Shown here in pieces: positions 6,001 to 39,520 of a stretch of DNA of 64,000 bases; position 1 is the first letter of the stretch; each line of letters opens with the position of its first letter. The translations under genes were made by a program, and so were the position numbers. The notes under the pieces were generated by a model. It searched no databases and was not told the DNA's origin. It saw nothing but the letters and a program-made list of their open reading frames with translations. Source of the DNA: Eledone cirrhosa (Eukaryota); NCBI GenBank assembly GCA_964016885.1, contig OZ024754.1, forward strand, positions 23,188,001 to 23,252,000. The letters are read 5' to 3'.

Positions 6001-9000
6001 TTATACTTACACTTACACCCTAACCACAAGCATTAGAATTAAACTTAAACACCAGCTACAAGGCATAGACATAGATTTAAACCCCAAACCTAACCCCAAG
6101 TCTTAGACTTAAAACCTAACCACAAGCCTTAGAATTAGACTTAAAACCTAACCCCAAGCTTTAAACTTAGACTTAAACCCTAACCACAAGATTAGACTTA
6201 CATTTACACCGTAACCCCAAGATTTAGACTTAGACTTAAACGCCAACATTAAGCCTTAGACTTAGACTTAAACCACAACCACAAGACTTAGACATAGATT
6301 TAAACCCCAAACCTAACCCAAAGACTTAGACTTAAACCCTAACCCGAAGCCTTAGACTTAGACTTAAACCCCAACCACAAGCCTTAGACTTATACTTAAA
6401 CCCTAACCCCATGCCTAAAACTTAGACTTAAACCCTAACCCCAAGTCTTAGACTTACACTTATACCCTCACCCTAAGCCTTAGAATTAGACTTAAACCCC
6501 AACTACAAGCCTTACACGTAGATTTAAACCCCAAACCTAACCCCAAGTCTTAGACTTAAACCCTAACCCCAAGCCTTAGACTTAGACTTAAAACCCAACC
6601 CCAAAACTTAGACTTAAACCCTAACCCCATGCCTTAAACTTAGATTTAAACCCCAACTCCAAGCCTTACATTTAGACTTAACTCCAACCCCAAGCCTTAA
6701 ACTTAGACTTAAACCCTAATCCCAGGCCTCAGAAATAGACTTAAAACCCAACCCCAAGCCTTTGAGTTAGACTTAAAGCCCAACTCTTAGCCTTAAATTA
6801 AACCTTAACCACAAGTCTTAGACTTAAACCCTAACCCCAAGCCTTAGACTTAGACTCAAACCCAATCCCCAAGCCTAAGACTTACACTTACACCCTAACC
6901 ACATGCCTTAGAATTAGACATAAACCCTAACCCCAAGCCTTAAACTTAGACTTAAACCCTAACCCCATGACTTAGACTTAGACTCAAACCCCAAACTTAA
7001 GCCTTAGACTTAGACTTAAACCCTAACCCCAAGCCTTAGACTTACATTTACACCGTACGCATAAGCCGTAGAATTAGACTTAAATCCAAAATACAAGCTA
7101 TACATATAGATTTAAACCCCAAACCTAACCCCAAGTCTTAGACTTAAACCCTAACCCCAAGTCTTAGACTTACACTTATACCCTCACCTAAGCCTTAGAA
7201 TTAGACTTAAACCCCAACTACAAGCCTTACACATAGATTTAAACACCAAACCTAACCCCAAGTCTTAGACATAGACCCTAAGCCCAAGCCTAATACTTAA
7301 ACCCCAACCACATGCCTTAAACTTACACTTAAACCCTGAGCCCAAGCCCTAGACTTACACTTACACTCTAACCCCAAGCCTTAGACTTACACTTACACCC
7401 AAACGACAAGCCTTAGAATTACACTTAAAACCTAACCCCAAGACTTAGACTTAGACTTAAACCACAACATTAAGCCTTGGACTTAGACTTAAACCACAAC
7501 CACAAGACTTAGACATAGATTTAAACCCCAAACCAAACCGCAAGTCTTAGACTTAAACCCTAACCCCAAGACTTAGACGTAAACCCTAACCACAAGCATT
7601 AGACTTATACTTAAACCCCATCCCCAAGCGTTAGACTTAGACTTAAACCCTAACCCCAAGCCTTAGACTTACACTTACACCCTCACCTTAAGCCTTAGAA
7701 TTAGACTTAAACCCCAACTACAAGCCTTACACATAGATTTAAACCCCAAACCTAACCCCAAGTCTTAGACTTAAACCCTAACCCCAAGCCTTAGACTTAG
7801 ACTTAAAAACCAACCCCAAAACTTAGACTTAAACCCTAACCCCATGCCTTAAACTTAGATTTAAACCCCAACTCCAAGCCTTACATTTAGACTTAACTCC
7901 AACCCCAAGCCTTAAACTTAGACTTAAACCCTAATCCCAGGCCTCAGAAATAGACTTAAAACCCAACCCCAAGCCTTAGACTTAGACCCTAACCCCAAAC
8001 CTTAGACTTAGTCTTAAACCCCTTCACTAAGCCTTAGACTTAGATTTAAACCCCATCCCCAAGCCTTAGACTTACTTACACCCTAACCACAAGCCTTAGA
8101 ATTAGTCTTAAACCCCACCTACCAGCCTGAGACATAGATTTAAACCCCAAACCTAACCCCAAGTCTTAGACTTACACCCTAACCCCAAGCCTTAGACTTA
8201 AACCGCAACCCCAAGCTTTAGACTTACACTTACACCTTAATAACAAGCCTTAGAATTAGACTTACATACCAACTACAAGCCTTAGACATAGATTTAAACA
8301 CCAAATTTAACCCCAAGTCTTAGAGCTAAACCCTAACCCCAAGCCTTAGACTTAAACCCTAACCCCAAGCCTTAGACTTAGACTTTAACCGCAACCCCAA
8401 GACTTAGACTTAAACCCTAACCCCATGCCGTAAACTTAGACTTTAACCCTGAGCCCAAGCCTTAGACTTACACTTACACCCTAACACCAAGAATTAGACG
8501 TAGACTTAAACCCTAAACCCAAATCTTAGACATAGACTTAAACCTCAACTTTACGCCTTAGACTTAGACTTAAACACAAACTACAAACCTTAGACATAGA
8601 TTTAAACCCCAAACCTAAACGCAAGTCTTAGACTTAAACCCTAACCCTAAGCCTAAGACTTTCACCCTAACTCCAAGCCTTAGGCGTAGCCTTAAACCCA
8701 AACCCTAAGCCTTAGACTTAGACTTAAAACCTAACCACAAGCCTTAGAATTAGACTAAAAACCTAACCCCAAGCTTTAAACTTAGACTTAAAGCCTAACC
8801 ACAAGATTAGACTTACATTTACACCCTAACCCCAAGGTTTAGAATTAGACTTAAACGCCAACATTAAGCCTTGGACTTAGACTTAAACCACAACCACAAG
8901 ACTTAGACATAGATTTAAACCCCAAACCTAACCCAAAGTCTTAGACTTAAACCCTAACCCCAAGCCTCAGACTTAAACCCTAACACCCAAGCCTAAGACT

Positions 9001-12000
9001 TACACTTACACCCTAACCACATGCCTTAGAATTAGACATAAACCCTAACCCCAAGCCTTAAACTTAGACTTAAACCCTAACCCCAAGACTTAGACTTAGA
9101 CTCAAACCCCAAACTTAAGCCTTAGACTTAGACTTAAACCCTAACCCCAAGCATTAGACTTACATTTACACCCTACCCATAAGCCGTAGAATTAGACTTA
9201 ACCCCAAAATACAAGCCATACATATAGATTCAAGCCCCAAACCTAACCCCAAGTCTTAGACTTAAACCCTAACCCGAAGCCTTAGACTTATACCCTAACC
9301 CCAAGCCTTAGACTTAGACTTAAACCCCAACCACAAGAGTTAGACTTATACTTAAACCCTAACCCCATGCCTAAAACTTAGACTTAAACCATAACCCCAA
9401 GTCTTAGACTTACACTTATACCCTCACCTTAAGCCTTAGAATTAGACTTAAACCCCAACTACAAGCCTTACACATAGATTTAAACCCCAAACCTAACCCC
9501 AAGTCTTACACTTAAACCCTAACCCCAAGCCTTAGACTTAGACTTAAAACCCAACCCCAAAACATAGACTTAAACCCTAACCCCATGCCTTAAACTTAGA
9601 TTTAAACCCCAACTCCAAGCCTTACATTTAGACTTAACTCCAACCCCAAGCCTTAAACTTAGACTTAAACCCTAACACCAAGCCTCTGAAATAGACTTAA
9701 ACCCTAACCCCAAGCCTTAGACATAGACTTACATCCCAACTCCTAGCCTTAGACTTAAACCCTAACCCCAAGCCTTAGACTTAAACCCTAACCGCAAGCC
9801 TTAGACTTAAACCCTAACCCAAACCTTAGACTTAACCTTAAACCCCATCACTAAGTCTTAGAATTAGACTTATACACCAAATACAAGCCTTATATTTAGA
9901 TTTAACACCAAACCTAACCCCAAGTCTTAGACATAGACCCTAAGCCCAAGCCTAATACTTAAACCCCAACCCCATGCCTTAAACTTACACTTAAACCCTG
10001 AGCCCAAGCCCTAGACTTACACTTACACTCTAACAGCAAGACTTAGACGTAGACTTAAACCGTAACCCCAAGCCTTAGACATAGACTTAAACCTCAAACT
10101 TAACCCTAAGCCTTAGACTTACACTTACACCCAAACGACAAGCCTTAGAATTACACTTAAAACCTAACCCCAAGACTTAGACTTAGACTTAAACCACAAC
10201 ATTAAGCCTTGGACTTAGACTTAAACCACAACCACAAGACTTAGACATAGATTTAAACCCCAAACCAAACCGCAAGTCTTAGACTTAAACCCTAACCCCA
10301 AGCCTTAGACGTAAACCCTAACCACAAGCGTTAGACTTATACTTAAACCCCATCCCCAAGCGTTAGACTTAGACTTAAACCCTAACCCCAAGCCTTAGAC
10401 TTACACTTACACCCTAACCACAAGCCTTGGAATTAGACTTAAACCCCAACTACAAGCCTTACACATAGATTTAAACCCCAAACCTAACCCCAAGTCTTAG
10501 ACTTAAACCTTAGCCACAAGCCTTAGACTTAAACCCTAACCCCAAGCCTTAGACGTACACTTACATCCTAACCCCAAGCCTTAGACTTAAACCCCATCCC
10601 CAAGCCTTATACTTACACTTACACCCTAACCACAAGCATTAGAATTAAACTTAAACACCAGCTACAAGGCATAGACATAGATTTAAACCCCAAACCTAAC
10701 CCCAAGTCTTAGACTTAAAACCTAACCACAAGCCTTAGAATTAGACTTAAAACCTAACCCCAAGCTTTAAACTTAGACTTAAACCCTAACCACAAGATTA
10801 GACTTACATTTACACCGTAACCCCAAGATTTAGACTTAGACTTAAACGCCAACATTAAGCCTTAGACTTAGACTTAAACCACAACCACAAGACTTAGACA
10901 TAGATTTAAACCCCAAACCTAACCCAAAGACTTAGACTTAAACCCTAACCCGAAGCCTTAGACTTAGACTTAAACCCCAACCACAAGCCTTAGACTTATA
11001 CTTAAACCCTAACCCCATGCCTAAAACTTAGACTTAAACCCTAACCCCAAGTCTTAGACTTACACTTATACCCTCACCCTAAGCCTTAGAATTAGACTTA
11101 AACCCCAACTACAAGCCTTACACGTAGATTTAAACCCCAAACCTAACCCCAAGTCTTAGACTTAAACCCTAACCCCAAGCCTTAGACTTAGACTTAAAAC
11201 CCAACCCCAAAACTTAGACTTAAACCCTAACCCCATGCCTTAAACTTAGATTTAAACCCCAACTCCAAGCCTTACATTTAGACTTAACTCCAACCCCAAG
11301 CCTTAAACTTAGACTTAAACCCTAATCCCAGGCCTCAGAAATAGACTTAAAACCCAACCCCAAGCCTTTGAGTTAGACTTAAAGCCCAACTCTTAGCCTT
11401 AAATTAAACCTTAACCACAAGTCTTAGACTTAAACCCTAACCCCAAGCCTTAGACTTAGACTCAAACCCAATCCCCAAGCCTAAGACTTACACTTACACC
11501 CTAACCACATGCCTTAGAATTAGACATAAACCCTAACCCCAAGCCTTAAACTTAGACTTAAACCCTAACCCCATGACTTAGACTTAGACTCAAACCCCAA
11601 ACTTAAGCCTTAGACTTAGACTTAAACCCTAACCCCAAGCCTTAGACTTACATTTACACCGTACGCATAAGCCGTAGAATTAGACTTAAATCCAAAATAC
11701 AAGCTATACATATAGATTTAAACCCCAAACCTAACCCCAAGTCTTAGACTTAAACCCTAACCCCAAGTCTTAGACTTACACTTATACCCTCACCTAAGCC
11801 TTAGAATTAGACTTAAACCCCAACTACAAGCCTTACACATAGATTTAAACCCCAAACCTAACCCCAAGTCTTAGACTTAAACCCTAAACCCAAGCCTTAA
11901 ACTTAGATTTAAACCCCAACTCCAAGCCTTACATTTAGACTTAACTCCAACCCCAAGCCTTAAACTTAGACTTAAACCCTAATCTCAGGCTTCAGAAATA

Positions 12001-15000
12001 GACTTAAAACCCAACCCCAAGCCTTTGAGTTAGAATTAAAGCCCAACACTTAGCCTTAAATTAAACCTTAACCCCAAGTTTTAGACTTAAACCCTAACCC
12101 CAAGCCTTAGACTTAGACTGAAACCCAATCCCCAAGCCTTAGACTTACACTTACACTCTATCCACAAGCTTTAGAAATAGACTTAAACCCAAACTACAAG
12201 CCTTAAACATAGATTTCAACCCCAAACCTAACCCCAAGTCTTAGACTTAAACCCTAACCACTAGACTAAGACTTAAACCCTAACCCCAAGCCTTAGACTT
12301 AGACTTAAACCCTAACCCCAAGCCTTAGACTTACATTTACACCCTACCCATAAGCCGTAGAATTAGACTTAAACCCAAAATACAAGCCATACATATAGAT
12401 TTAAACCCCAAACCTAACCCCAAGTCTTAGACTTAAACCCTAACCCGAAGCCTTAGACTTATACCCTAACCCCAAGCCTTAGACTTAGACTTAAACCCCA
12501 ACCACAAGAGTTAGACTTATACTTAAACCCTAACCCCATGCCTAAAACTCAGACTTAAACCCTAACCCCAAGTCTTAGACTTACACTTATACCCTCACCT
12601 TAAGCCTTAGAATTAGACTTAAACCCCAACTACAAGCCTTACACATAGATTTAAACCCCAAACCTAACCCCAAGTCTTAGACTTAAACCCTAACCCCAAG
12701 CCTTAGACTTAGACTTAAAACAAAACCCCAAAACATAGACTTAAACCTTAAACCCATGCCTTAAACTTAGATTTAAACCCCAACTCCAAGCCTTACATTT
12801 AGACTTAACTCCAACCCCAAGCCTTAAACTTAGACTTAAACCCTAATCCCAGACCTCAGAAATAGACTTAAAACCCAACCCCAAGCCTTTGAGTTCGACT
12901 TAAAGCCCAACTCTTAGCCTTAAATTAAACATTAACCCCAAGTCTTAGACTTAAACCCTAACCCCAAGCCTTAGACTTAGACTGAAACCCAATCCCCAAG
13001 CCTTAGACTTACACTTACACTCTATCCACAAGCCTTAGACTTAGAGTTAACTCCAACCACAAGTCTTAAACTTAGACTTAAACCCTAACCCCATGCCTTA
13101 AACTTAGACTTAAACCCTAACCACAAGCCTTAGACTTACACTTACACCCTAACCACAAGCCTTAGCATTAGACTTAAACCCAAACTACAAGCCTTAAACA
13201 TAGATTTCAACCCCAAACCTAACCCCAAATCTTAGGCTTAAACCCTAACCACTAGACTAAGACTTAAACCCTAACCCCAAGCCTTAGACTTAGACTTAAA
13301 CCCAACCCCAAGACTTAAAACTTAGACTTAAACACCAACCCCAAGCCTTAAACTTAGACTTAAACCCTAACACCAAGCCTCTGAAATAGACTTAAACCCC
13401 AACCCCAAGCCTTAGACATAGACTTACATCCCAACTCCTAGCCTTAGACTTAAACCCTAACCCCAAGCCTTAGACTTAAACCCTAACCGTAAGCCTTAGA
13501 CTTAAACCCTAACCCAAACCTTAGACTTAACCTTAAACCCCATCACTAAGTCTTAGAATTAGACTTATACAAGCCTTATATTTAGATTTAAACACCAAAC
13601 CTAACCCCAAGTCTTAGACATAGACCCTAAGCCCAAGCCTAATACTTAAACCCCAACCACATGCCTTAAACTTACACTTAAACCCTGAGCCCAAGCCCTA
13701 GACTTACACTTACACTCTAACCCCAAGCCTTAGACTTACACTTACACCCAAACGACAAGCCTTAGAATTACACTTAAAACCTAACCCCAAGACTTAGACT
13801 TAGACTTAAACCACAACATTAAGCCTTGGACTTAGACTTAAACCACAACCACAAGACTTAGACATAGATTTAAACCCCAAACCAAACCGCAAGTCTTAGA
13901 CTTAAACCCTAACCCCAAGACTTAGACGTAAACCCTAACCACAAGCATTAGACTTATACTTAAACCCCATCCCCAAGCGTTAGACTTAGACTTAAACCCT
14001 AACCCCAAGCCTTAGACTTACACTTACACCCTAACCACAAGCCTTGGAATTAGACTTAAACCCCAACTACAAGCCTTACACATAGATTTAAACCCCAAAC
14101 CTAACCCCAAGTCTTAGACTTAAACCTTAGCCCCAAGCCTTAGACTTAAACCCTAACCCCAAGCCTTAGACGTACACTTACATCCTAACCCCAAGCCTTA
14201 GATTTAAACCCCATCCCCAAGCCTTATACTTACACTTACACCCTAACCACAAGCATTAGAATTAAACTTAAACACCAGCTACAAGGCATAGACATAGATT
14301 TAAACCCCAAACCTAACCCCAAGTCTTAGACTTAAAACCTAACCACAAGCCTTAGAATTAGACTTAAAACCTAACCCCAAGCTTTAAACTTAGACTTAAA
14401 CCCTAACCACAAGATTAGACTTACATTTACACCGTAACCCCAAGATTTAGACTTAGACTTAAACGCCAACATTAAGCCTTAGACTTAGACTTAAACCACA
14501 ACCACAAGACTTAGACATAGATTTAAACCCCAAACCTAACCCAAAGTCTTAGACTTAAACCCTAACCCGAAGCCTTAGACTTAGACTTAAACCCCAACCA
14601 CAAGACTTAGACTTATACTTAAACCCTAACCCCATGCCTAAAACTTAGACTTAAACCCTAACCCCAAGTCTTAGACTTACACTTATACCCTCACCCTAAG
14701 CCTTAGAATTAGACTTAAACCCCAACTACAAGCCTTACACGTAGATTTAAACCCCAAACCTAACCCCAAGTCTTAGACTTAAACCCTAACCCCAAGCCTT
14801 AGACTTAGACTTAAAACCCAACCCCAAAACTTAGACTTAAACCCTAACCCCATGCCTTAAACTTAGATTTAAACCCCAACTCCAAGCCTTACATTTAGAC
14901 TTAACTCCAACCCCAAGCCTTAAACTTAGACTTAAACCCTAATCCCAGGCCTCAGAAATAGACTTAAAACCCAACCCCAAGCCTTTGAGTTAGACTTAAA

Positions 15001-15316
15001 GCCCAACTCTTAGCCTTAAATTAAACCTTAACCACAAGTCTTAGACTTAAACCCTAACCCCAAGCCTTAGACTTAGACTCAAACCCAATCCCCAAGCCTA
15101 AGACTTACACTTACACCCTAACCACATGCCTTAGAATTAGACATAAACCCTAACCCCAAGCCTTAAACTTAGACTTAAACCCTAACCCCATGACTTAGAC
15201 TTAGACTCAAACCCCAAACTTAAGCCTTAGACTTAGACTTAAACCCTAACCCCAAGCCTTAGACTTACATTTACACCGTACGCATAAGCCGTAGAATTAG
15301 ACTTAAATCCAAAATA
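1..15316 (+). repeat. Telomere-related complex satellite array (left), 26/32/38-bp monomers, C/A-rich on +
   Basis: Continuous monomers of AAACCCTAACCCCAAGCCTTAGACTT(AGACTT). Measured spacings: 32 bp (CCCTAA at 858 and 890) and 26 bp (AAGCCTTAGAC at 5164 and 5190); a 38-bp form is AAGCCTTAGACATAGATTTAAACCCCAAACCTAACCCC. No ORF in the supplied track lies wholly within it. Confidence 0.97.
3110..11850 (+). repeat. Near-identical direct duplication of about 4.1 kb (about 3110-7245 vs about 7716-11850), offset 4606 bp
   Basis: Rare variants recur at a constant 4606-bp offset: CCCCTTCA 3413/8019, GCCTTAGGCG 4071/8677, ACCAGCTACAAGGC 6051/10657, CACCGTACGC 7051/11657. Confidence 0.92.
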
Positions 15317-18150
15317 ACAAACCCTAACCCTAACCCTAGCCCTAACCCTAACCGAAAACCTAACCCTATCCCTAACCCTAACCCAAACCCTAAACCTAAC
15401 CCTAATCCTAACCCTAACCCTAACTCTAACTCTAACCTTAACACTAAGCCTAAACCTAATCCAAACCCTAACCCAAATTCTAACCCTAACCCTAACCCTG
15501 ACCCTAATCCTATCCCTAACCCTAACATAATCCCTAACCCTAAACATAATCCTAACCCTAACCCAAACACAAACCCAAACCCTAACACAAACCCTAACCC
15601 TAACCCTAACCCTAGCCCTATCCCTAACCCAAAACCTAACCCTATCCCTAACCCTAACCTTAACCCTAACCCTAACCAAAATCCTAACCCTAAACCAAAC
15701 CCTAACCCTATCCCCAAACCTAACACTAACCGTAACCCTAGCCCTAAATCTAACCCCAAGCCTAACCCCTACGCTAACCCCAACCCAAACCCCAACCCCA
15801 AACTTAACACTAACCGTAAACCTAACCCTAACCCTAACCCTAACAATAACACTAACCCTAACTCTTACCCTAACCCTAACCCTAACACAAATCCTAACCC
15901 TAACCCTAACCCTAACCCAAACCCTAACACTAACCCCAAACTTCAACCTAACCCTAACCCCAACCCTAACCCTAACCCTAACCCCAACCCTAACCCTAAC
16001 CCTAACCCCAACCCTAATCCTATCCCTAAACCCAAATCTATCCCCAACTCTAACCCCAACCCTAACTCCAACCTTAAGCCTTACCCTAACCCTAACACTA
16101 AACCTAACCCTAACCCCAACTCTAACCCAATCTCTAACCCTAACCCTAACCCTAACCCAAACTCTAACCCTAACCCTAACTCTAACACTAACCCAAACCC
16201 TAACACTAACACTAATCTTAACTCTGACTCTAACCCTAACCATAACGCAAACCCAAACACTAACACAAACCCTGACCCTAACCCTCACACAAATCCTAAC
16301 CCTAACCCTAACCCCAACACTGAATCTAACCGTAAACCTAACACTAACCCCAACCCCAACACCAACCCCAATGCTAACCCTAACCCTAACTCTAACCCAA
16401 ACCCTAACACAAATCCATAATCCCAACCGTAGCCCCAACCCTATTACTAACCCTAACCCTAACCCCATCCCTAAACCCAACCATAAGCTCAACCGTAGCC
16501 CCAACACTAACCCTAACTCTAACCCTAACACTAACCTTAACCCCAACACTAACCCTAACACCAAACCCAATCCCAACGCTAACCCCAACCCTAACCCTAA
16601 TCCTAACCCCAACAATTAACCCTAAACTTAACACAAACCCTAACCCTAACCCAAACTCAAACCCTAACCCTAACCCTAACCCTAACCCAAACTCAAACCC
16701 TAAACCTAAGCCTAACCCTAACCTTAACACTAACCCTAACCCTAACACTAACCCTAACCCTAACCCTAACCGTAGCTCTAACTCCAAACCTAACACTAAC
16801 CAAACCCTAACACTAACACTAAGCCTCACCCTCACCCTAACCCTAGCCCCAACCCTAACCCCAAACATAAGCCCAACCCTAACCCTAACCCCAAACCCAA
16901 CCCTAACCCTAACCCTAAGCCTAACCCAAACCCCAAACCAAATCCTAACCTTAACCCTAACCCAAACCCTAACCCTTACCCAAACCCTAAATCTAACCCT
17001 AAGCCTAACCCAAACCAAAACCGTAACCCTAACCCAAAACCTAAACCTAACCCAAACCCTAACCCTAACACTAACCCACACCCTAATCCTAACCCTAACC
17101 CCAACCCTAACCCCAACCCTAATCCCAACCCTAACACTAACCCTATCCCTAACCCCAACCCTAACCCCAACCCTAACCCTAAGCCTAACCCTAACCCTAC
17201 TTTTTACCCTAACCCTAATCCAAACCCCAAACCAGATCCTAACCCTAACCCTAACCCCAACCCAACCCTAACCCTAACCCTAAACCAAACCCTAACCCTA
17301 ACCCTAACCCAAACCCCAACACGAACCCCAACTCCAACCAAAACTCCAATCCTAAACCTAAACCTAACCCTAACCCAAACACTAACCCTAACATAAACCC
17401 AAACCCTACCCCTAACCCCAAACCTAACCCCAACCCTAACCCTAACACTAAGCCTAACCCTAACCCTCACATTTACCCTAACCCAAACCCAAAACCAAAT
17501 CCCTACCCTAACCTTAACCCAAACCCTAACCCCAACCCAAACCCAAAACCAAATCCCTACCCTAACCTTAACCCAAACCCTAACCCCAACCCTAACCCTA
17601 ACCCTAACCAAACCCTAACCCTAACCCAAACCCCAACACGAACCCTAACCCCAACCCAAACCCCAATCCTAAACCTAACCTTAACCCAAACACTAACCCT
17701 AACACAAACCCAAACCCTAACCCTAACCCTAACCCCAACCATAAGCCCAACCGTAGCCCCAACCCTAACCCGAACCCTAACCTTAAACCTAACCCGAATC
17801 TTAACTCTACCCCTAACCCGAATCCTAAACCTAATTCTAACCCTAACCCTAACCCCAAACCTAACCCTACCCCTAACCCTAACTCCAAACCTAACCGTAA
17901 CCCTAACCCAAATCCTAACCCTAACCCTCACCCTAACCCCAACCCTAACCCCAACCCTAACCCCAACCATAAGCCCAACCCTAACCCTAACCCTAACCCT
18001 AACACCAACACGAACCCCAACCCAAACCCAATAGTAAACCTAAAACTAACCCTAACCCAAACACTAACCCTAACACAAACCCAAACCCTAACCCTAACCC
18101 TAACCCCAACCCTAACCCCAACCATAAGCCCAACCGTAGCCCCAACCCTA
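15317..18150 (-). repeat. Degenerate interstitial telomeric tract (CCCTAA)n, G-strand on - running toward lower coordinates
   Basis: About 2.8 kb of CCCTAA interspersed with CCCCAA, CCCAAA, CACTAA, CTCTAA, TCCTAA, CCTTAA and GCCTAA variants. The satellite AGACTT units disappear abruptly after about 15305. Confidence 0.97.
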
Positions 18151-19092
18151 CTTCAGCTCTATCAAAATGTGAACGAAAAGCCTAAATCAGCCTAAATAAA
18201 AAAATAATAATTTAATAAATGCCAAAAAATCAATTTGTAAACACAGAACTAAATATTTCGAAAATTGTAAAAAAATCAATCTGTGGACTCATAATGATTC
18301 TTTTTCGAAAAAGCAAAGAAAATCAAAAATATTTCGGAAAATGCAAAAAAATTAATCTATGAACGACTTTTTAACGAAAAACGTAAAAAAATTAATCTGT
18401 AAATATTTCGAAAGATTGATATTTATGTAAAAAAAATCAATCATGTTGATTCTTTTTCGAAAAACCTAAAATCACAAATCTGTGAAATCAGAGGTAAATA
18501 ATTTGAAAAATGCCAAAAATTCAACGAAAAATGTAAAAGAAATCAATGAACCCAGATTGACTTTTTAACGAAAAACGTAGAAAAAAAAAAAAAAATGTTT
18601 TAAAAATCAATTCGTGAACGCATAATGATTCTTTTTCGAAAAACCTAAAAAGATCAATTTTTTGTAAACACGGAAGTAAATATTTTGATAAATGTAAAAA
18701 AATCAATCTATGAACGCAGATTGACTTTTTAACGAAAAATGTAAAAAAATTAATCTGCAAAAGCAGAAGTAAATATTTCAATTTTTGAAATCAGAAGCAA
18801 AAGAATCAATCCGTTGAAAGCATTAATTTTTTTCTTGATTTTTTTTTACATTTTTCGTTCATAAATCCTTAAAACGGATTGATTTTTCTGCATCTTTCGA
18901 AAATTAATTTTTTTACACTTTTCGAAATATTTTTAGACTTCGCAGATTGATTTTTTTTAGTTTTTTCGAAAATATGCGTTCACAAATTGATTCATTTACA
19001 TTTTTCGAAATATTTGTGTTTATAAATTGATTTTTTTTACATTTTTCGAAATATTTACTTATAGATTTTTTTTAGGTTTTTCAAAAAGAATC
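18151..19092. repeat. AT-rich core made of degenerate ~45-bp units in two opposed arms (fold-back)
   Basis: The left arm repeats TTTCGAAAAATGTAAAAAAATCAATCT..; after about 18820 the reverse complement repeats. The reverse complement of 19026-19060 is AAGTAAATATTTCGAAAAATGTAAAAAAAATCAAT, compared with 18247-18280 AACTAAATATTTCGAAAATTGTAAAAAAATCAAT. Confidence 0.88.
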
Positions 19093-19160
19093 AGTCTAAG
19101 GCTCTTGGGGTTCAAGGCTTGGGGTTGGGGTTTAAGTCTGTCTAAGGCTTGTGGTTGGGG
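19093..19160 (-). repeat. Short inverted fragment (about 2-3 monomers) of the flanking satellite
   Basis: AGTCTAAGGCT..AAGGCTTGGGGTTGGGGTTTAAGTCTGTCTAAGGCTTGTGGTTGGGG is the reverse complement of CCCCAACCACAAGCCTTAGACAGACTTAAACCCCAACCCCAAGCCTT..AGCCTTAGACT. Confidence 0.92.
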
Positions 19161-20009
19161 TTAGGGTTAGGGTTAGGGTTAGGGTTTGGGTTTGGGTTAG
19201 GGTTTGGGTTAGGGTTACGGTTAGGGTTAGGGTTGGGATTAGGGTTAGAGTTAGGGTTTGGATTAGGGTTAGGGTTAGGGTTGGAGATGGGGATGGGGTT
19301 AGGGTTAAAGGTTTGGGTTTGGGTTAGAGTTGGGTTAGGGTTAGGGTTAGGGTTAGGGTTGGGATTAGGGTTAGGGTTAGGGTTTGGATTAGGGTTAGGG
19401 TTAGGGTTGGAGATGGGGATGGGGTTGGGGTTGGGGTTGGGATTAGGGTTAGGTTTAGGGTTAGGGTTTGGGTTAGGGTTAGGGTTAGGGTTAGGGTTAG
19501 GGTAGGGTTACGGTTAGGGTTGGGGTTGGGGTGGAATTTGTGTTAGGGTTGGGGTTAGGGTTGGGGTTAGGGTTAGGGTTAGGGTTAGGGTTAGGTTTAG
19601 GGTTAGGGTTAGGGTCGGGGTCAGGGTCAGGGTCAGCGTCATGGTCAGGGTCGGGGTCAGGGTTGCGGTTAGGGTTAGGGTTGGGGTTAGGGATAGGTTT
19701 AGGGTTAGGGTTTGGGTTAGGGTTGGGGTTAGGGTTAGGGTTAGGGTTAGGGTTGGGGTTAGGGTTCGGTTTGGGTTGGTGTTAGGGTTGGGGTTAGGGT
19801 TAGGGTTAGTGTTAGTGTTAGGGTTAGGGTTAGGGTTAGGGTCAGGGTTAGGGTTAGGGTTGGGGTTAGGGTTAGGGTTGGGGTTGGGTAGGGGTTGGGT
19901 TTGGGGTTGGTATTGGTATTGGGGTTGGGATTGGGGTTGGAGGTTGGGTTAGGGTTGCGGTTAGGGTTGGAGTTAGGTTTGGGGTTAGGGTTGGGATTAG
20001 GGTTGGGGA
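19161..20009 (+). repeat. Degenerate interstitial telomeric tract (TTAGGG)n, G-strand on +
   Basis: About 0.85 kb of TTAGGG with TTGGGG, TTTGGG, TTGGGA, TCAGGG, TTAGTG and ATGGGG variants. Confidence 0.97.
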
Positions 20010-22149
20010 TAGACTTAAACACCAACTCCAATCCTTAGACTTAAACCCTAACCCCAAACCTTAGTCGTAAACCCTAACCCAAATCCTTAGACTTAGACTT
20101 AAACCAGAACCCCAAGCCTTAGAATTACACTTACACCCTAAACCCAAGCCTTAGACTTAGACTTAAACCACAACTCCAAGCTTTAGACATAGATTTAAAC
20201 CCAACCCTAACCCCAAGACTTAGGCTTAAACCCCAACACCAAGCCTTAGACTTAAACCCAAGCGCCTAGACTTAGACTTAGACATAAACACCAACCACAA
20301 GCATTAGACTTAGAGTTAAACACCAAACTTAAGCCTTAGACTTGGGCTTAAACCCAAACCCCAAGCCTTAGACATAGATTTAAACTCAAATTCCAAGCTT
20401 ATACTTAGAATTAAAACCCAACACCAAGCCTTAGACTTAGACTTAAACCCCAACCCCAAGCCTTAGGCTTAGACTTAAAATCTAACGCCAAGCCTTAGAT
20501 TAGACATAAACCCGAACCACAAGCCTTAGACATACACTTAAACCCCAACCGCAAGCCTTAGACATAGACTTAAACCCCAACCACAAGCATAAGATTTAGT
20601 CTTAAACCCCAACCACAAGCCTTTGTGTTAGACTTAAAACCCAACCACAAGCCTTAGAATTAAACCCTAACCCCAAGCCTTAGACTTAAACACTAACCCC
20701 AAGCGTTAGACTTAGACCTAAACCCCAACCCCAAGCCTTAGACTTAGACTTAATCCCCGAAGCCAAGCCTTAGACTTAGACTTAAACCCCAACCACAAGA
20801 CTTAGCCTTAGACATAAACGGAAACCCATAGCCTTAGACATAGACATAAACACCAACCCCAATCCTTAGAACTAAACATTAATCCTTGGACTTAAATCCC
20901 ATACCCAAGCCTTAGTCTTAAACCCTAACCCAACACGAAGCCTTAGACTTAGACTTAAACCCCAACCCCAATCCTTAGACGTAGACTTAAACCCTAACAA
21001 CAAGCCTTAGACTTACACTTACACCCTAACCACAAGCCTTAGAATTAGACTTAAACCCTAACTCCACGCCTTAAACTTGGATTTAAACCCTAACCCCAAG
21101 CCTTAGACTTACATTTACACCCTAACCCCAAGACTTAGACTTACAGTTAAAACCCAACCTTAAGCCTTAGACTTAGACTTAAACCCCAACCACAAGCCTT
21201 AGACATAGATTTAAACCCCAAAACTAACCCCAAGTCTTAGACTTAAACCCTAACCCCAAGCCTTAGACTTAAAACCTAACCCCAAGCCTTAGACTTAGCC
21301 TTAAACCCCAACCCCAAGCCTTAGACTTAGATTTAAACCCTAACCCCAAGCCTTAGATTTACACTTACACCGTAACCACAAGCCTTAGAATTAGACATAA
21401 ACCCTAACCCCAAGCCTAAGACATAGACTTAACCTCCAACTACAAGCCTTAGACATATATTTAAACCCCAAACCTAACCCCAAGTCCTAGACTTAAACCC
21501 TAACCACAAGCCTTAGACTTACACGTACACCCTAACCACAAGCCTTCGAATTAGAGATAAAGCCTAACCCCAAGCCTTAGACATAGACTTAACCCCCAAC
21601 ACCAAGCCTTAGAATTAGACTTAAACCCCAACTACAAGTCTTAGACATAGATTTAAACACCAAACCTAACCTCAAGCCTTAGACCTAAACCCTAACCCAA
21701 AGCCTAAGACTTAAACCCCAACCTCAAGCCTTAGACTTAGACTTAAACCCTAACCCCAAGCCTTAGACTTACACTTACACCCTAACCACCAGCCTTAGAA
21801 TGAGACTTAAACCCTAACCACAAACCTTAGACTTACATTTACTCCCTAACCCCAAACACTTAGGCATAGATTTCAACCCCAACCACAAGCATAAGACTTA
21901 GATTTAAACACCAACTCCAAGCCTTAGGCTTAACCCCTAACCCCAAGCATTAGACTTACACTTACACCATAACCCCAAGACTTAGACTTAGACTTAAGCC
22001 CCAACCCCAAGCCTTAGACTAAGACTTAAACCCTAACCCAAGCCTTAGACTTACACTTACACCCTAACCACAAGCACGAGACTTAGAATTAAACAACAAG
22101 CTTAAGCCTTAGACTTAGACTTAATCCGCAACCTCAAACCTTAGACTTA

Positions 22150-24600
22150 GACATAAACCCTAACCCCAAGCCTCAGACATAGACTTAAACCCCAACCCCA
22201 AGCCTTTGAGTTAGACTTAAACCCTATCTACAAGACTTAGACTTACACTTACACCCTAACCACAAGGCTTAGAATTAGACTTAAACCCTAACCCCAAGCC
22301 TTAAACTTAAACTTAAACCCTAACCCCAAGCCTTAGACTTACATTTACAAACTAACCTCATGATTTGGAGTTAGACTTGAACCCTAACCACAAGCCTTAG
22401 ACATAGATTTAAACCCCAAACCTAACCCCAAGCCTTGGACTTAAACCCTAACCCCAAGCCTTAGACTTAGCCTTAAACCCCAACCCCAAGCCTTAGACTA
22501 AAATTTAAACCCTAACCACAAGCCTTAGACTTAGACTGAAACCCTAACCCAAGCCTTAGACTTAAACTTACACCCTAACTACAAGCCTTAGAATTAGACT
22601 TAAACCACAACAACAAGCCTTACACAGATTTAAACCCCAAACCTAAACCCAAGCCTTAGACTTAGACTTAACTTCAACCTCAAGCCTTAAACTTAGACTT
22701 AAACACTAACCCCAAGCCTCAGAAATAGAGTTAAAACCCAACGCCAAGCCTTTGAGATAGACTTAAACCCCAACCCAAGCCTAAACCCACCCTAACCCCA
22801 AGACTTAGACTTAGACTTAAACCCCAACCTTAAGCCTTAGACTTAGACTCAAACCACAACCACAAGCCTTAGACATAGATTTAAATCCCACACCTAACCC
22901 CAAGTCTTAGACTTAAACCCTAACCCCAAGCCTTAGACTTAATACCTAACCCCAAACCTTAGACTTAGCCTTAAACCCCAACACTAAGCCTTAGACTTAG
23001 ACTTAAACCCTAACCCCAAGCCTTAGACTTACACTTACACCCTAAACACAAGTCTTAGAATTAGACGTAAACCGTAAGACAAGCCTTAAACTTAGACTTA
23101 AAACCTAAATCCAAGCTTTAGACTTACATTTACACCCTAACCCCAAGACTTAGACTTAGACTTAAACCCCAAACTTAAGCCTTATACTTAGACTTAAACC
23201 CCAACCACAAGCCTTAGAATTAGACTTAAAGCCCAACTACAAGCCTTACACATAGATTTAAACACCAGACCTAACCCCAAGTCTTAGACTTAAACCCTAA
23301 CCCCAAGCCTTAGACTTAGACTTAAAACCCAACCCCAAAACATAGACTTAGACATAAACCCTAACCCCATGCCTTAAACTTAGACGTAAAATCCATCACA
23401 AGCCTTAGACTTAGACTTAACTCCAACCCCAAGCCTTAAACTTAGACTTAAACCCTAACCCCAAGCCTCAGGAATAGACTTAAACTCCAACAGCAAGCCT
23501 TTCAGTTAGACTTACACCGCAACCCCAAGCCTTAGACTTAGACTTAAAGCCAAACTCCTAGCCTTAGACTTAAAACCTAACCCCAAGCCTTAGACTTAAA
23601 ACCTAACCCCAACCCTTAGAATTAGCCTTAAATCCCAACACTAAGCCTTAGACTTAGACTTAAACCCTAACCCCAAGCCTCAGACATAGACTTAAACCCC
23701 AACCCCAAGCCTTTGAGTTAGACTTAAACCCTATCTACAAGACTTAGACTTACACTTACACCCTAACCACAAGGCTTAGAATTAGACTTAAACCCTAACC
23801 CCAAGCCTTAAACTTAAACTTAAACCCTAACCCCAAGCCTTAGACTTACATTTACAAACTAACCTCATGATTTGGAGTTAGACTTGAACCCTAACCACAA
23901 GCCTTAGACATAGATTTAAACCCCAAACCTAACCCCAAGCCTTGGACTTAAACCCTAACCCCAAGCCTTAGACTTAGCCTTAAACCCCAACCCCAAGCCT
24001 TAGACTAAAATTTAAACCCTAACCACAAGCCTTAGACTTAGACTGAAACCCTAACCCAAGCCTTAGACTTAAACTTACACCCTAACTACAAGCCTTAGAA
24101 TTAGACTTAAACCACAACAACAAGCCTTACACAGATTTAAACCCCAAACCTAAACCCAAGCCTTAGACTTAGACTTAACTTCAACCTCAAGCCTTAAACT
24201 TAGACTTAAACACTAACCCCAAGCCTCAGAAATAGAGTTAAAACCCAACGCCAAGCCTTTGAGATAGACTTAAACCCCAACCCAAGCCTTAGACTTAGAC
24301 TTAAAGCGCATCTCCTAGACTTAGACTTAAACCCTAAACCCAAGCCTAAACCCACCCTAACCCCAAGACTTAGACTTAGACTTAAACCCCAACCTTAAGC
24401 CTTAGACTTAGACTCAAACCACAACCACAAGCCTTAGACATAGATTTAAATCCCACACCTAACCCCAAGTCTTAGACTTAAACCCTAACCCCAAGCCTTA
24501 GACTTAATACCTAACCCCAAACCTTAGACTTAGCCTTAAACCCCAACACTAAGCCTTAGACTTAGACTTAAACCCTAACCCCAAGCCTTAGACTTACACT
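22150..24600 (+). repeat. Local direct duplication, offset 1507 bp
   Basis: CCCTATCTACAAG at 22222/23729 and TGATTTGGAGTTAGACTTGAA at 22361/23868. Confidence 0.85.
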
Positions 24601-27600
24601 TACACCCTAAACAGAAGCCTTAGAATTAGACATAAACTCTAACACCAAATCTTAAACTTAGACTTAAACCCTAACTCCAAGCCTTAGATTTACATTTACA
24701 CCCTAACCCCAAGACTTAGACTTAGACTTAAACCCCAACTACAAGCCTTAGACATAGATTTAAACCCCGAACCTAACCCCAAGTCTTAGACTTAAACCCT
24801 AACCCCAAGCATTAGACTTAAACCCTAACCCCAAGCCTTGGACTTATACTTAAAGCCCATCCCCAAGCCTTAGAATTACACTTACATCCTAACCACAAGC
24901 CTTAGAATTAGACTTAAATCCCCCAACTATAAGCCTTAGACATAGATTTCAACCCCAAACCTAACCCCAAGTCTTAGACTTAAACCCCAACCTTAAGCCT
25001 TAGACTTAGTCTCAAACCACAACCACAAGCCTTAGACATAGATTTAAACCCACACCTAACCCCAAGTCTTAGACTTAAACCCTAACCCCAAGCCTTAGAC
25101 TTACACTTACACCCTAACCACAGGCCTTAGAATTAGACTTAAACCCTAAACCCAAGCCTTAAACTTAGACTTAAACCCTAACCACAAGCTTTAGACTTAC
25201 ATTTACACCCTAACCCCAAGCCTTAGACTTAATACCTGACCCCAAACCTTAGACTTAGCCTTAAACCCCAACACTAAGCCTTAGACTTAGACTTAAACCC
25301 TAACCCCAAGCCTTAGACTTAGACTTAAACCTCAACCCCAAGCCTTAAACTTAGACTTAAAACCTAACTCCAAGCCTTAGACTTACATTTACACCCTAAC
25401 CCCAAAACTTAGACTTAGACTTAAACCCCAAACCTTAAGCCTTAGACTTAGACTTAAACCCCAACCACAAACCTTAGAATTAGATTTAAAGCCCAACTAC
25501 AAGCCTTACACATAGATTTAAACACCAGACCTAACCCCAAGTCTTAGACTTAAACCCTAATCGCAAGCCTTGGACTTACACTTACGCCTTAACCCCAAGC
25601 CTTAGATTTAAAATTAAACCCCAACCACAAGCCTTAGACATAGATTTAAATCCTAACCCCTAGTCTCAGAAACAGACCTAAACCCCAACCCCAAGCCTTA
25701 TACTTAGACCCTAAACCCAAGCCTTAGACTTAAACCCTAACCCCAAGCCTTAGACTTAAACCCTAACCCCAAACCTTAGACTTAGTCTTAAACCACATCA
25801 CTAAGCCTTAGACTTAGATTTAAACCCCATCCCCATGCCTTAGACTTACTTACACCGTAACCACAAGCCTTAGAATTAGACTTAAACCCATTAGACCTAA
25901 CCCCAAGTCTTAGACTTAAACCCTAATCCCAAGCCTTGGACTTACACTTACGCCTTAACCCCAAGACTTAGACATAGACTTAAAACCCAAACTTAAGCCT
26001 TAGATTTAAAATTAAACCCCAACCACAAGCCTTAGACATAGATTTAAATCCTAACCCCTAGTCTCAGGAACAGACCTAAACCCCAACCCCAAGCCTTAGA
26101 CTTAAACCCTAACCCCAAGCCTTAGACTTAAACCCTAACCCCAAACCTTAGACTTAGTCTTAAACCCTATCACTAAGCCTTAGACTTAGATTTAAACCCC
26201 ATCCCCAAGCCTTAGACTGACTTACACCGTAACCACAAGCCTTAGAATTAGACTTAAACCCCAACTACCAGCCTGAGACATAGATTTAAACCCCAAACCT
26301 AACCCCGAGTCTTAGACTTAAATCCTAACCCCAAGCCTTAGACTTAGACTTAAACCGCAACCCCAAGCTTAAGACTTACACTTACACCTTAATCACAAGA
26401 CTTAGAATTAGACTTACATACCAACTACAAGCCTTAGACATAGATTTAAACAACAAATTTAACCCCAAGTCTTAGAGCTAAACCCTAATCCCAAGCCTTA
26501 GACTTAAACCCTAACCCCATGCCGTAAACTTAGACTTTAACCCTGAGCCCAAGCCTTAGACTTACACTTACACCCTAACACCAAGAATTAGACGTAGACT
26601 TAAACCCTAAACCCAAACATTAGACATAGACTTAAACCTCAACATTACACCTTAGACTTAGACTTAAACACAAACTACAAACCTTAGACATAGATTTGAA
26701 TCCCAAACCTATACGCAAGACTTAGATTTAAACCCTAACCCCAAGTCTTAGACTTACACTTATACCCTCACCCTAAGCCTTAGAATTAGACTTAAATCAC
26801 AACTACAAGCCTTACACATAGATTTAAACCCCAAACCTAACCCCAAGTCTTAGACTTAAACCCTAACCCCAAGCCTTAGACTTAGACTTAAAAACCAACC
26901 CCAAAACTTAGACTTAAACCCTAACCCCATGCCTTAAACTTAGATTTAAACCCCAACTCCAAGCCTTACATTTAGACTTAACTCCAACCCCAAGCCTTAA
27001 ACTTAGACTTAAACCCTAATCCCAGGCCTCAGAAATAGACTTAAAACCCAACCCCAAGCCTTAGACTTAGACCCTAAACCCAAGCCTTAGACATAAACCC
27101 TAACCCCAAGCCTTAGACTTAAACCCTAACCCCAAACCTTAGACTTAGTCTTAAACCCCATCACTAAGCCTTAGACTTAGATTTAAACCCCATCCCCAAG
27201 CCTTAGACTTACTTACACCCTAACCACAAGCCTTAGAATTAGACTTAAACCCCACCTACCAGCCTGAGACATAGATTTAAACCCCAAACCTAACCCCAAG
27301 TCTTAGACTTACACCCTAACCCCAAGCCTTAGACTTAAACCGCAACCCCAAGCTTTAGACTTACACTTACACCTTAATAACAAGCCTTAGAATTAGACTT
27401 ACATACCAACTACAAGCCTTAGACATAGATTTAAACACCAAATTTAACCCCAAGTCTTAGAGCTAAACCCTAACCCCAAGCCTTAGACTTAAACCCTAAC
27501 CCCAAGCCTTAGACTTAGACTTTAACCGCAACCCCAAGACTTAGACTTAAACCCTAACCCCATGCCGTAAACTTAGATTTTAACCCTGAGCCCAAGCCTT

Positions 27601-28799
27601 AGACTTACACTTACACCCTAACACCAAGAATTAGACGTAGACTTAAACCCTAAACCCAAATCTTAGACATAGACTTAAACCTCAACTTTACGCCTTAGAC
27701 TTAGACTTAAACACAAACTACAAACCTTAGACATAGATTTAAACCCCAAACCTAAACGCAAGTCTTAGACTTAAACCCTAACCCTAAGCCTAAGACGTTC
27801 ACCCTAACTCCAAGCCTTAGGCGTAGCCTTAAACCCAAACCCTAAGCCTTAGACTTAGACTTAAAACCTAACCACAAGCCTTAGAATTAGACTAAAAACC
27901 TAACCCCAAGCTTTAAACTTAGACTTAAAGCCTAACCACAAGATTAGACTTACATTTACACCCTAACCCCAAGGTTTAGAATTAGACTTAAACGCCAACA
28001 TTAAGCCTTGGACTTAGACTTAAACCACAACCACAAGACTTAGACATAGATTTAAACCCCAAACCTAACCCAAAGTCTTAGACTTAAACCCTAACCCCAA
28101 GCCTCAGACTTAAACCCTAACCCCCAAGCCTAAGACTTACACTTACACCCTAACCACATGCCTTAGAATTAGACATAAACCCTAACCCCAAGCCTTAAAC
28201 TTAGACTTAAACCCTAACCCCAAGACTTAGACTTAGACTCAAACCCCAAACTTAAGCCTTAGACTTAGACTTAAACCCTAACCCCAAGCATTAGACTTAC
28301 ATTTACACCCTACCCATAAGCCGGAGAATTAGACTTAAACCCAAAATACAAGCCATACATATAGATTTAAGCCCCAAACCTAACCCCAAGTCTTAGACTT
28401 AAACCCTAACCCGAAGCCTTAGACTTATACCCTAACCCCAAGCCTTAGACTTAGACTTAAACCCCAACCACAAGAGTTAGACTTATACTTAAACCCTAAC
28501 CCCATGCCTAAAACTTAGACTTAAACCATAACCCCAAGTCTTAGACTTACACTTATACCCTCACCTTAAGCCTTAGAATTAGACTTAAACCCCAACTACA
28601 AGCCTTACACATAGATTTAAACCCCAAACCTAACCCCAAGTCTTACACTTAAACCCTAACCCCAAGCCTTAGACTTAGACTTAAAACCCAACCCCAAAAC
28701 ATAGACTTAAACCCTAACCCCATGCCTTAAACTTAGATTTAAACCCCAACTCCAAGCCTTACATTTAGACTTAACTCCAACCCCAAGCCTTAAACTTAG

Positions 28800-31700: not shown

Positions 31701-33050
31701 AAGCGTTAGACTTATACTTAAACCCCATCCCCAAGCGTTAGACTTAGACTTAAACCCTAACCCCAAGCCTTAGACTTACACTTACACCGTAACCACAAGC
31801 CTTGGAATTAGACTTAAACCCCAACTACAAGCCTTACACATAGATTTAAACCCCAAACCTAACCCCAAGTCTTAGACTTAAACCTTAGCCCCAAGCCTTA
31901 GACTTAAACCCTAACCCCAAGCCTTAGACGTACACTTACATCCTAACCCCAAGCCGTAGATTTAAACCCCATCCCCAAGCCTTATACTTACACTTACACC
32001 CTAACCACAAGCATTAGAATTAAACTTAAACACCAGCTACAAGGCATAGACATAGATTTAAACCCCAAACCTAACCCCAAGTCTTAGACTTAAAACCTAA
32101 CCACAAGCCTTAGAATTAGACTTAAAACCTAACCCCAAGCTTTAAACTTAGACTTAAACCCTAACCACAAGATTAGACTTACATTTACACCGTAACCCCA
32201 AGATTTAGACTTAGACTTAAACGCCAACATTAAGCCTTAGACTTAGACTTAAACCACAACCACAAGACTTAGACATAGATTTAAACTCCAAACCTAACCC
32301 AAAGTCTTAGACTTAAACCCTAACCCGAAGCCTTAGACTTAGACTTAAACCCCAACCACAAGACTTAGACTTATACTTAAACCCTAACCCCATGCCTAAA
32401 ACTTAGACTTAAACCCTAACCCCAAGTCTTAGACTTACACATATACCCTCACCCTAAGCCTTAGAATTAGACTTAAACCCCAACTACAAGCCTTACACGT
32501 AGATTTAAACCCCAAACCTAACCCCAAGTCTTAGACTTAAACCCTAACCCCAAGCCTTAGACTTAGCCTTAAAACCCAACCCCAAAACTTAGACTTAAAC
32601 CCTAACCCCATGCCTTAAACTTAGATTTAAACCCCAACTCCAAGCCTTACATTTAGACTTAACTCCAACCCCAAGCCTTAAACTTAGACTTAAACCCTAA
32701 TCCCAGGCCTCAGAAATAGACTTAAAACCCAATCCCAAGCCTTTGAGTTCGACTTAAAGCCCAACTCTTAGCCTTAAATTAAACCCTAACCCCAAGCCTT
32801 AGACTTAGACTGAAACCCAATCCCCAAGCTTTAGACTTACACTTACACTCTATCCACAAGCCTTAGACTTAGAGTTAACTCCAACCACAAGTCTTAAACT
32901 TAGACTTAAACCCTAACCACAAGCCTTAGACTTACACTTACACCCTAACCACAAGCCTTAGAATTAGACTTAAACCCAAACTACAAGCCTTAAACATAGA
33001 TTTCAACCCCAAACCTAACCCCAAATCTTAGGCTTAAACCCTAACCACTA
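28800..33050 (+). repeat. Tandem higher-order duplication, offset 2237 bp
   Basis: AGCCCAACCCCATG at 29101/31338 and CACATATACCC at 30201/32438. Ends are approximate. Confidence 0.85.
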
Positions 33051-39000: not shown

Positions 39001-39520
39001 CATCCTAACACCAAGCCTTAGACTTAGACTTAAACCCCATCCCCAAGCCTTAGACTTACACTTACACCCTAACCACATGCCTTTGAATTAGACTTAAACC
39101 CTAACCCCATGCCTTAAACTTACACTTACACTCTAACAGCAAGACTTAGACGTAGACTTAAACCCTAACCCCAAGCCTTAGACATAGACTTAAACCTCAA
39201 CCTTAAGCCAAAGCCTTAGACTTAAACCCTAACCCCAAGCCTTAGACTTACACTTACACCCAAACGACAAGCCTTAGAATTACACTTAAAAGCTAACCCC
39301 AAGACTTAGACTTAGACTTAAACCACAACATTAAGCCTTGGACTTAGACTTAAACCACAACCACAAGACTTAGACATAGATTTAAACCCCAAACCTAACC
39401 CAAAGTCTTAGACTTAAACCCTAACCCCAAGCCTTAGACGTAAACCCTAACCCCAAGCGTTAGACTTAGACTTAAACCCCATCCCCAAGCGTTAGACTTA
39501 GACTTAAACCCTAACCCCAA
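31650..39520 (+). repeat. Tandem higher-order duplication, offset 3848-3906 bp
   Basis: TAACTGCAAG at 33336/37184 and AAGCGTATGA at 34633/38481 (offset 3848); CACATATACCC at 32438/36344 (offset 3906). Ends are approximate. Confidence 0.85.

Follow-up and report, generated by a model that had tools for sequence, protein, structure and literature searches.

Tm1, a Mutator/Foldback family of root-knot nematodes, is described as having unequal subrepeat numbers, terminal motifs that are not inverted, and one further unit after its inner motif; it has MITE-like, noncoding members with target-site duplications (TSDs) of 8 to 10 bp and also members without inverted termini (PMC3169594). In the Drosophila Foldback-type elements Tetris and Galileo, the repeat number changes independently in each arm, and the inversions associated with them have been ascribed to recombination between two copies (PMC4079207, PMC3573991). 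For the 1.17-Mb hk4S inversion of Arabidopsis, which has the Mutator-like element Vandal5 at both breakpoints and for which the un-inverted allele is known, the proposal was that the element kept one end in place and inserted the other at a new target, which was not duplicated (PMC5113708); the Vandal5-induced hk4S inversion is also cited in PMC12312487. Degenerate TTAGGG blocks inside chromosomes have been classified as heterochromatic and fusion interstitial telomeric sequences (ITS), often flanked by transposons and satellite (PMC6410037). In fold-back inverted duplications, an unduplicated spacer separates the inverted arms, and the telomeres lie on the outside (PMC3907307, PMC10123110).

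The locus described here is an imperfect palindrome (the core) between two telomere-type hexamer arrays, within a 64-kb stretch of DNA that was analyzed as a whole (the window). Like Tm1, the core has inverted arms that consist of different numbers of tandem units, an inner motif plus one extra unit, and noninverted ends. However, the units of Tm1 measure 13 to 15 bp and its arms average 93% identity, whereas those of the core are AT-rich, ~42 bp long, and arranged in arms of 85 to 88% identity over the aligned columns of local alignments, and the likeness is one of described anatomy (PMC3169594). Because Tm1-type members lack inverted termini too, the same lack in the core rules out only the canonical Foldback/Mutator-like form. 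With Tetris and Galileo, the core shares long, internally repetitive inverted arms, a noncoding middle, and an association with an inversion, which is putative here; unlike the core, these elements have true inverted termini and internal repeats of ~210 to 220 bp, and their inversions involve two copies, compared with one copy here (PMC4079207, PMC3573991). The step that we propose below resembles the Vandal5 case in that one end would have gone to a new site with no new target duplication, but the putative inversion here covers 915 bp, has the element at one breakpoint, and has a reconstructed ancestral state.

Fusion ITS are head to head, with TTAGGG followed by CCCTAA. The order around the core is the opposite, CCCTAA...TTAGGG, and does not agree with a fusion of the 2q13 type; only at the 20008/20009 junction does a G-rich stretch precede a C-rich one, and there the sequence on one side is satellite. 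Inverted arms, an unduplicated spacer, and telomeres outside also characterize the minichromosome palindromes of Trypanosoma brucei. The same geometry is shared with the fold-back inverted duplications, but those copy everything to the chromosome end, whereas at this locus neither the junctions nor the arrays are mirrored and the spacer measures 57 bp (PMC3907307, PMC10123110). Judging by their listings, none of the papers retrieved on foldback elements with TTAGGG and on telomere-derived satellites presents this anatomy, and the satellite and unit motifs were not found printed in the main texts of the articles searched. RcS5 is a telomere-repeat element of C. elegans; a literature search on it returned unrelated papers only.

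A telomere-type block within a 32-bp satellite

The whole window is made up of one 32-bp satellite with the unit GACTTAGACTTAAACCCTAACCCCAAGCCTTA (~2,050 copies, 26-bp variants among them), which totals ~59 kb (1-15316 and 20009-64000), has its C-rich strand on + across the window, holds 12 CCCTAA per kb, and is ~88% identical to its own consensus (184 tiles). Because its unit contains CCCTAA, we infer a putative telomeric origin for this satellite. A CCCTAA-containing satellite of this kind would mimic a big interstitial telomere signal. It has been duplicated irregularly in multi-kb blocks of 97 to 100% identity. Its single large interruption is the ~4.7-kb block at 15317-20008, in which a CCCTAA array (2,834 bp), the AT-rich core (943 bp), a satellite stub (59 bp), and a TTAGGG array (856 bp) follow one another (Table 1). 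The unequal lengths of the two arrays agree with the 2.8 and 0.85 kb given in the earlier note on this DNA. No chromosome end lies within the 64-kb window.

Table 1. Features of the window, in order of position
Feature	Position	Strand	Remarks
32-bp telomere-like satellite	1..15316	+ (C-rich)	multi-kb blocks recently amplified; abrupt stop at 15316
Degenerate (CCCTAA)n array	15317..18150	+	471 units, 35% canonical
Candidate TSD, left copy, CCCCAACCCTA	18140..18150	+	equals the reverse complement of 19998-20008
Left terminal stub, 23 bp	18151..18173	+	no mirror at the other end
Left arm, A-rich units	18174..18815	+	~3.5 copies of a four-unit block
Inner motif ending ATCAATCCGTT, left copy	18793..18815	+	no other CCGTT on + in the core; matches the right copy at 20/23
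Spacer, 57 bp	18816..18872	none	one extra reverse unit inside; mirror axis 18844
Right arm, A-rich units	18873..19083	-	six units
Inner motif, right copy	18873..18895	-	
Right terminal stub, 10 bp	19084..19093	-	piece of a unit tail; putative left inversion breakpoint 19093/19094
Stub of the 32-bp satellite, 59 bp	19094..19152	-	94% to the satellite consensus over the aligned columns of 19094-19160
Degenerate (TTAGGG)n array	19153..20008	-	143 units, 48% canonical; units counted on 19153-20010
Candidate TSD, right copy, displaced and inverted	19998..20008	-	putative right breakpoint 20008/20009
32-bp satellite without recent duplicate in the window	20009..22150	+	in phase with the 59-bp stub once 19094-20008 is turned
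32-bp satellite	22151..64000	+	multi-kb duplications of 97-100%

At the left edge of the block (15316/15317), satellite gives way abruptly to the CCCTAA array without a change of polarity. The satellite block that is cut off here, 13725-15316, shares 99.6% identity with 5502-7093 and 10108-11699, both of which run on as satellite. This recent junction would have buried the CCCTAA array. For 2.1 kb, the right flank is without a recent duplicate within the window; the best identity was below 0.95 in 14 of 14 tiles at 20101-22051 (such tiles number 30 of the 394 satellite tiles overall). Positions 1-873 and 22808-23680 are 100% identical, and over its first ~7 kb, the window runs parallel to 22808-30600. 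Judging by this similarity, the satellite on the right of the block may have been the source of that on the left, and there might be another copy of the block farther upstream, outside the window. The satellite at 62400-64000 again has no recent duplicates within the window; perhaps it lies near another array boundary or is duplicated beyond the window. A stop-free frame of 458 codons at 15239-16615 (-), with LG/VR dipeptides on the G-rich strand, is a by-product of the TTAGGG repeats, not a gene.

Canonical hexamers make up 167 of the 471 units of the left array and 68 of the 143 units of the right one. The longest perfect runs are 4 (left) and 5 (right) units, and neither array is pure at its outer end. 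The variants are substitutions (8 of 471 units are off length); the changes are mostly T>C and T>A at position 4 and, in the left array, C>A and C>T at positions 1 and 2 as well, and indels are rare. Both arrays are old. Duplicated patches occur inside them, namely, three related ones (17296-17403, 17637-17762, and 18009-18145), a 54-bp tandem pair (17482-17589), and a 126-bp pair (19185-19424). These patchy duplications show that both hexamer arrays turn over like satellite.

By their sequences, the two arrays are not mirror copies of each other. No mirror similarity of the left and right arrays rose above that of shuffles, 7 of 100 and 25 of 40 of which reached the observed values. When the left array was compared with the turned right array, the variant-pattern score was 6.5 against a null mean of 6.9 (reached by 25 of 40 shuffles), whereas the same test detected the within-array duplications with scores of 23.0 and 22.2, compared with a maximum of 9.8 in 8 runs with the shuffled left array. 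Differences between the arrays extend to unit spectrum (P = 0.016) and purity (P = 0.011), whereas none appeared among the thirds of the left array (P = 0.15). Their junctions with the core differ as well, being direct on the left and by way of the satellite stub on the right. Within the window, reverse-strand DNA of the telomere family is confined to 19094-20008, with no TTAGGG on + outside this interval and no CCCTAA inside it, and 19094-19152 is the only reverse-strand satellite that was found.

The A-rich core and its mirror axis

The core (18151-19093; 943 bp, 23% GC) is an imperfect palindrome of A-rich units, and the inverted similarity claimed for it in the earlier note exceeded that of shuffled controls. 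A local alignment of the left arm with the reverse complement of the right arm scored 112, compared with 30 in the direct orientation; none of 1,000 dinucleotide shuffles (maximum, 67) and none of 1,000 homopolymer-run shuffles (maximum, 83) reached this score. The predicted fold energy of the core was -154.4 kcal/mol versus -101.8 ± 6.3 kcal/mol for shuffles, none of 20 of which reached it (z = -8.4). Both of the matches quoted in that note were recovered, i.e., 18794-18815 with the reverse complement of 18873-18894 (19/22) and 18626-18650 with that of 19070-19093 (24/24 aligned bases and one gap; 20/25 without a gap, against 19069-19093), and so was the switch in unit direction near 18820, with units running forward to ~18815 and in reverse from ~18822. 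Repeated units are real, but instead of ~45 bp, their lengths range from 20 to 53 bp (median, 42; 23 units, delimited by hand from CGAAAA-like anchors). The tails, which had been thought to alternate, do not do so simply; the left arm holds ~3.5 copies of a four-unit block whose aligned columns are 86 to 94% identical, and the GACTTTTTAA tail is missing from the right arm. The arms are indeed unequal, with lengths of 642 and 211 bp rather than ~670 and 270 bp.

Across the window, the unit motif was matched 9 times, always inside the core (chance expectation, 0). The unit anchors of the core (18151-19093) are self-complementary TTTCGAAA words; TG is present in 4 of 21 of them, a hint of methylation decay. 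The observed/expected CpG ratio is 2.25 in the core and 0.24 in the satellite. The right arm fits several registers of the left arm, with scores of 112 (outer; 133 of 151 positions identical) and 100 (inner; 138 of 162). When the six right-arm units were reordered, 65 of the 720 orders scored as high as the real one, and the unit-by-unit mirror order is therefore weak and not significant. The core is partly a true mirror and partly the same family merely inverted.

The mirror axis lies at 18844, between the two copies of an inner motif that is absent from the rest of the core. It was placed there because the motif occurs once per arm, at the inner end, and because of the CCTAAA-type outer starts and the pairing in the fold. 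Of the 11 forward continuations, only the innermost carries the motif, and of the 6 reverse ones, only the second-innermost, and the extra unit in the spacer continues the right arm. Both arms start on the outside with a CCTAAA-type unit. In the predicted fold, 18175-18271 pairs with 19082-18995 and 18605-18751 with 18992-18906, i.e., outer with outer and inner with inner parts, and ~330 bp of extra left-arm units is looped out. No inverted repeat reaches both termini of the core; 12 of 30 positions match between the ends, and the right end stops within a unit tail. The axis had been said to coincide with the telomere-strand switch, which turned out to be wrong. The reverse telomere-family DNA begins at 19094, 250 bp to the right of the axis; the switch is the right edge of the core (19093/19094), and the two share only the same 943-bp gap. 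The match of the A-rich to the C-rich strand on either side is no independent evidence, because any palindrome between inverted flanks shows it automatically.

One copy of the core was found in the window. The open reading frames within it encode 47 and 86 amino acids, and an open reading frame scan detected no transposase or other coding sequence around it. An Rfam scan gave 6 matches (E = 0.1 to 0.47), all far below the gathering score, indicating no structured RNA gene; weak matches to microRNA models within this E range, at 19969-20078 (the G-rich/C-rich junction) and 18792-18897 (the inner hairpin), result from the inverted geometry. A tRNA scan found 0 tRNAs. The core had no blastn match among 72,556 plasmids and 50,697 phages, and an exact scan of prokaryotic genome contigs returned 0 hits each for a satellite and a core stretch. 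Helitron termini have the form TC...CTRR, which the termini of the core did not fit in a comparison by eye.

A putative Foldback-type insertion and a probable adjacent inversion

When 19094-20008 is turned round, one pair of breakpoints gives two matches, an in-phase satellite junction and a direct repeat around the core. The turned stub joins the satellite at 20009 in phase; the 20-mer at this junction is native to the array, where it occurs 17 times, and 114 times in a register shifted by one base. The direct repeat, a candidate TSD, is 9, 10, or 11 bp long according to where one sets the left end, and it appears only after the turn; as arranged now, the best duplication directly flanking the core is 4 bp. 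In 200,000 random draws, the duplication match arose by chance with a frequency of 0.047 (≥9 bp exact) or 0.086 (one base of slack), the satellite-junction match with 0.047 (exact) or 0.135 (one base of slack), and both jointly with 0.002 (exact) or 0.012 (one base of slack), in a test that was post hoc. After the turn, a single polarity prevails everywhere in the window except for the right arm and part of the spacer of the core, and the transition from the hexamer array to satellite is gradual, as it would be in a left chromosome end. The ~90 bp to the left of the core has a near-identical copy at 17680-17767, whose continuation differs from the turned right array; such near-identical patches are short and discontinuous in the left array. 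We regard it as likely that the flank 19094-20008 was inverted in place.

The core has the long inverted arms of tandem subrepeats that are expected of Foldback/Mutator-like elements, and these arms are unequal (642 and 211 bp), carry the inner motif once each, and enclose a noncoding 57-bp middle. TSDs of such elements reach 11 bp. By its sequence, the core is built like a foldback element and is probably of this type, with a putative membership in the Foldback/Mutator-like group; it is best seen as a probably unannotated example of an already known type of structure. The fold-back element named as one option in the earlier note thus fits the core in its arms, unequal subrepeats, inner motif, noncoding spacer, and noninverted stubs. 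However, a plain insertion cannot give flanks that face in opposite directions, and a second event, the inversion of 19094-20008, is needed.

The explanation that we prefer, at about an even chance, is a nonautonomous Foldback/Mutator-like element in an internalized telomere array, with the adjacent inversion likely produced by one-ended transposition. A C-rich telomere-type array of ~3.7 kb would have passed gradually into the 32-bp satellite, as if it had once been a left chromosome end, and the element would have inserted into this array with a target duplication of 9 to 11 bp. A transposase acting in trans would then have cut the right end only and joined it 915 bp away, 59 bp into the satellite, and repair would have united the two free ends and flipped the intervening piece without a new duplication. 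Amplified satellite was joined at the far left end, at the junction 15316/15317 described above, in what would have been a later event that buried the array. If the duplication is real, the break falls exactly between the element and the duplication, which suggests a transposase rather than a random break. The units would be former transposase-binding subrepeats; the core has no present function.

This explanation is favored by a palindrome far above shuffles, the mirrored inner motif, the unequal unit numbers, and the two junction matches. Against it, the inversion was recognized post hoc, and the junction matches, taken singly, are both weak. The unlike arrays might also count against it, as the two parts of a split array could be expected to be more alike. 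Moreover, the copy at 17680-17767 continues differently, the core ends are not inverted, the mirror order is not significant, and the window contains a single copy of the core and no transposase open reading frame.

Both junction matches and the ragged, noninverted ends of the core would also be covered by a staggered break in the telomere-type array with a second break 915 bp away, after which the piece was flipped and a fragment of a palindromic repeat was captured as filler. We consider this unlikely, since the core spans both arms nearly end to end, which a random filler fragment need not do. Staggered breaks with inverted duplications at one breakpoint have a precedent in Drosophila, but the duplications described there measure 46 bp to 1.9 kb, compared with 11 bp here, and the word "filler" does not occur in that paper (PMC1885836).

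The arrays face outward, as in a linear chromosome, and the right half, with its units, satellite stub, and TTAGGG, resembles a small subtelomere. Such an arrangement could come from two chromosome ends set back to back, as the earlier note had suggested, or from a broken end that was folded back and copied, with later fusion into the satellite on both sides. A short unduplicated spacer between inverted arms is a hallmark of fold-back duplication (PMC3907307, PMC10123110), and there is one here (18816-18872), whose extra unit continues the right arm; human fold-back spacers, as sequenced, measure at least 766 bp, compared with 57 bp for this one (PMC3907307). A fold-back copy should, however, mirror the unit/telomere junction and the array variants, and here the arms are not mirrored through the telomere junction, the junctions being different and the arrays unrelated. 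Unrelated arrays suit two separate chromosome ends, but two independent ends would both have had to break at the same rare inner motif. Since the arrays are not mirrored and the junctions differ, a folded-back or back-to-back chromosome end is argued against. It is also disfavored by the lack of pure repeats at the outer array ends and by its need for two further fusions, and it leaves the in-phase junction and the 11-bp match to chance (0.002 to 0.012). We therefore hold an origin from chromosome ends to be improbable.

The same inner motif at the end of both arms and the poor mirroring of unit order could be accounted for by duplicated head-to-tail modules (telomere array, units, and inner motif), the second of which was inverted from the axis to 20008. 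This is very improbable, as the array/unit junctions differ between the two modules, the inversion must begin exactly at a module edge, and both junction matches become coincidence. We assign just as little likelihood to the 4.7-kb block having originated from a tiny palindromic linear chromosome, or a telomere-armed mobile unit, with kilobase telomere arrays pointing outward from a sub-kilobase core, that was captured into the putatively telomere-derived satellite and survives there as a fossil.

The 4.7-kb block is a coarse palindrome, and a 10-bp repeat, TAGACTTAAA, is present at 15298-15307 and 20010-20019, as if the whole block were one mobile element with the telomere arrays as its outer arms and this repeat as its TSD. 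We rejected this TSD, because the 10-mer is a satellite word that occurs 861 times (such a match is found in 4.5% of random pairs) and because the paralogues of the left flank go 9 bases past it and then diverge from the right flank. No empty site was found among the satellite paralogues, as 5 of 5 left-flank paralogues continue as satellite and 0 into the right flank. The ends of the block have no inverted repeat beyond the hexamer, and a single large element is extremely doubtful. An assembly or read artifact, in the form of a fold-back chimera or a misjoin in satellite, might be suspected in a window that is almost all repeat with many 99 to 100% duplications, but arms that are 85 to 88% identical with indels do not come from a read fold-back and the array variants are substitutions (8 of 471 units off length), making this a most improbable source.

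Among these readings, only a telomere-armed unit would surprise; if it were true, such units would be free or dispersed in the genome, seeding interstitial telomeres and satellites. The use of the present findings is mainly for repeat and karyotype specialists, with the general picture unchanged. If a Foldback/Mutator-like insertion followed by one-ended transposition is the true history, the locus would be a base-resolution case in which one transposon and a short inversion produced the look of a "mini-chromosome," and it would advise caution, as outward-facing telomere arrays around a palindrome need not be scars of a fusion or a fragment. It would also supply the arms of a possibly unannotated foldback family, together with a telomere array buried in a large telomere-like satellite.
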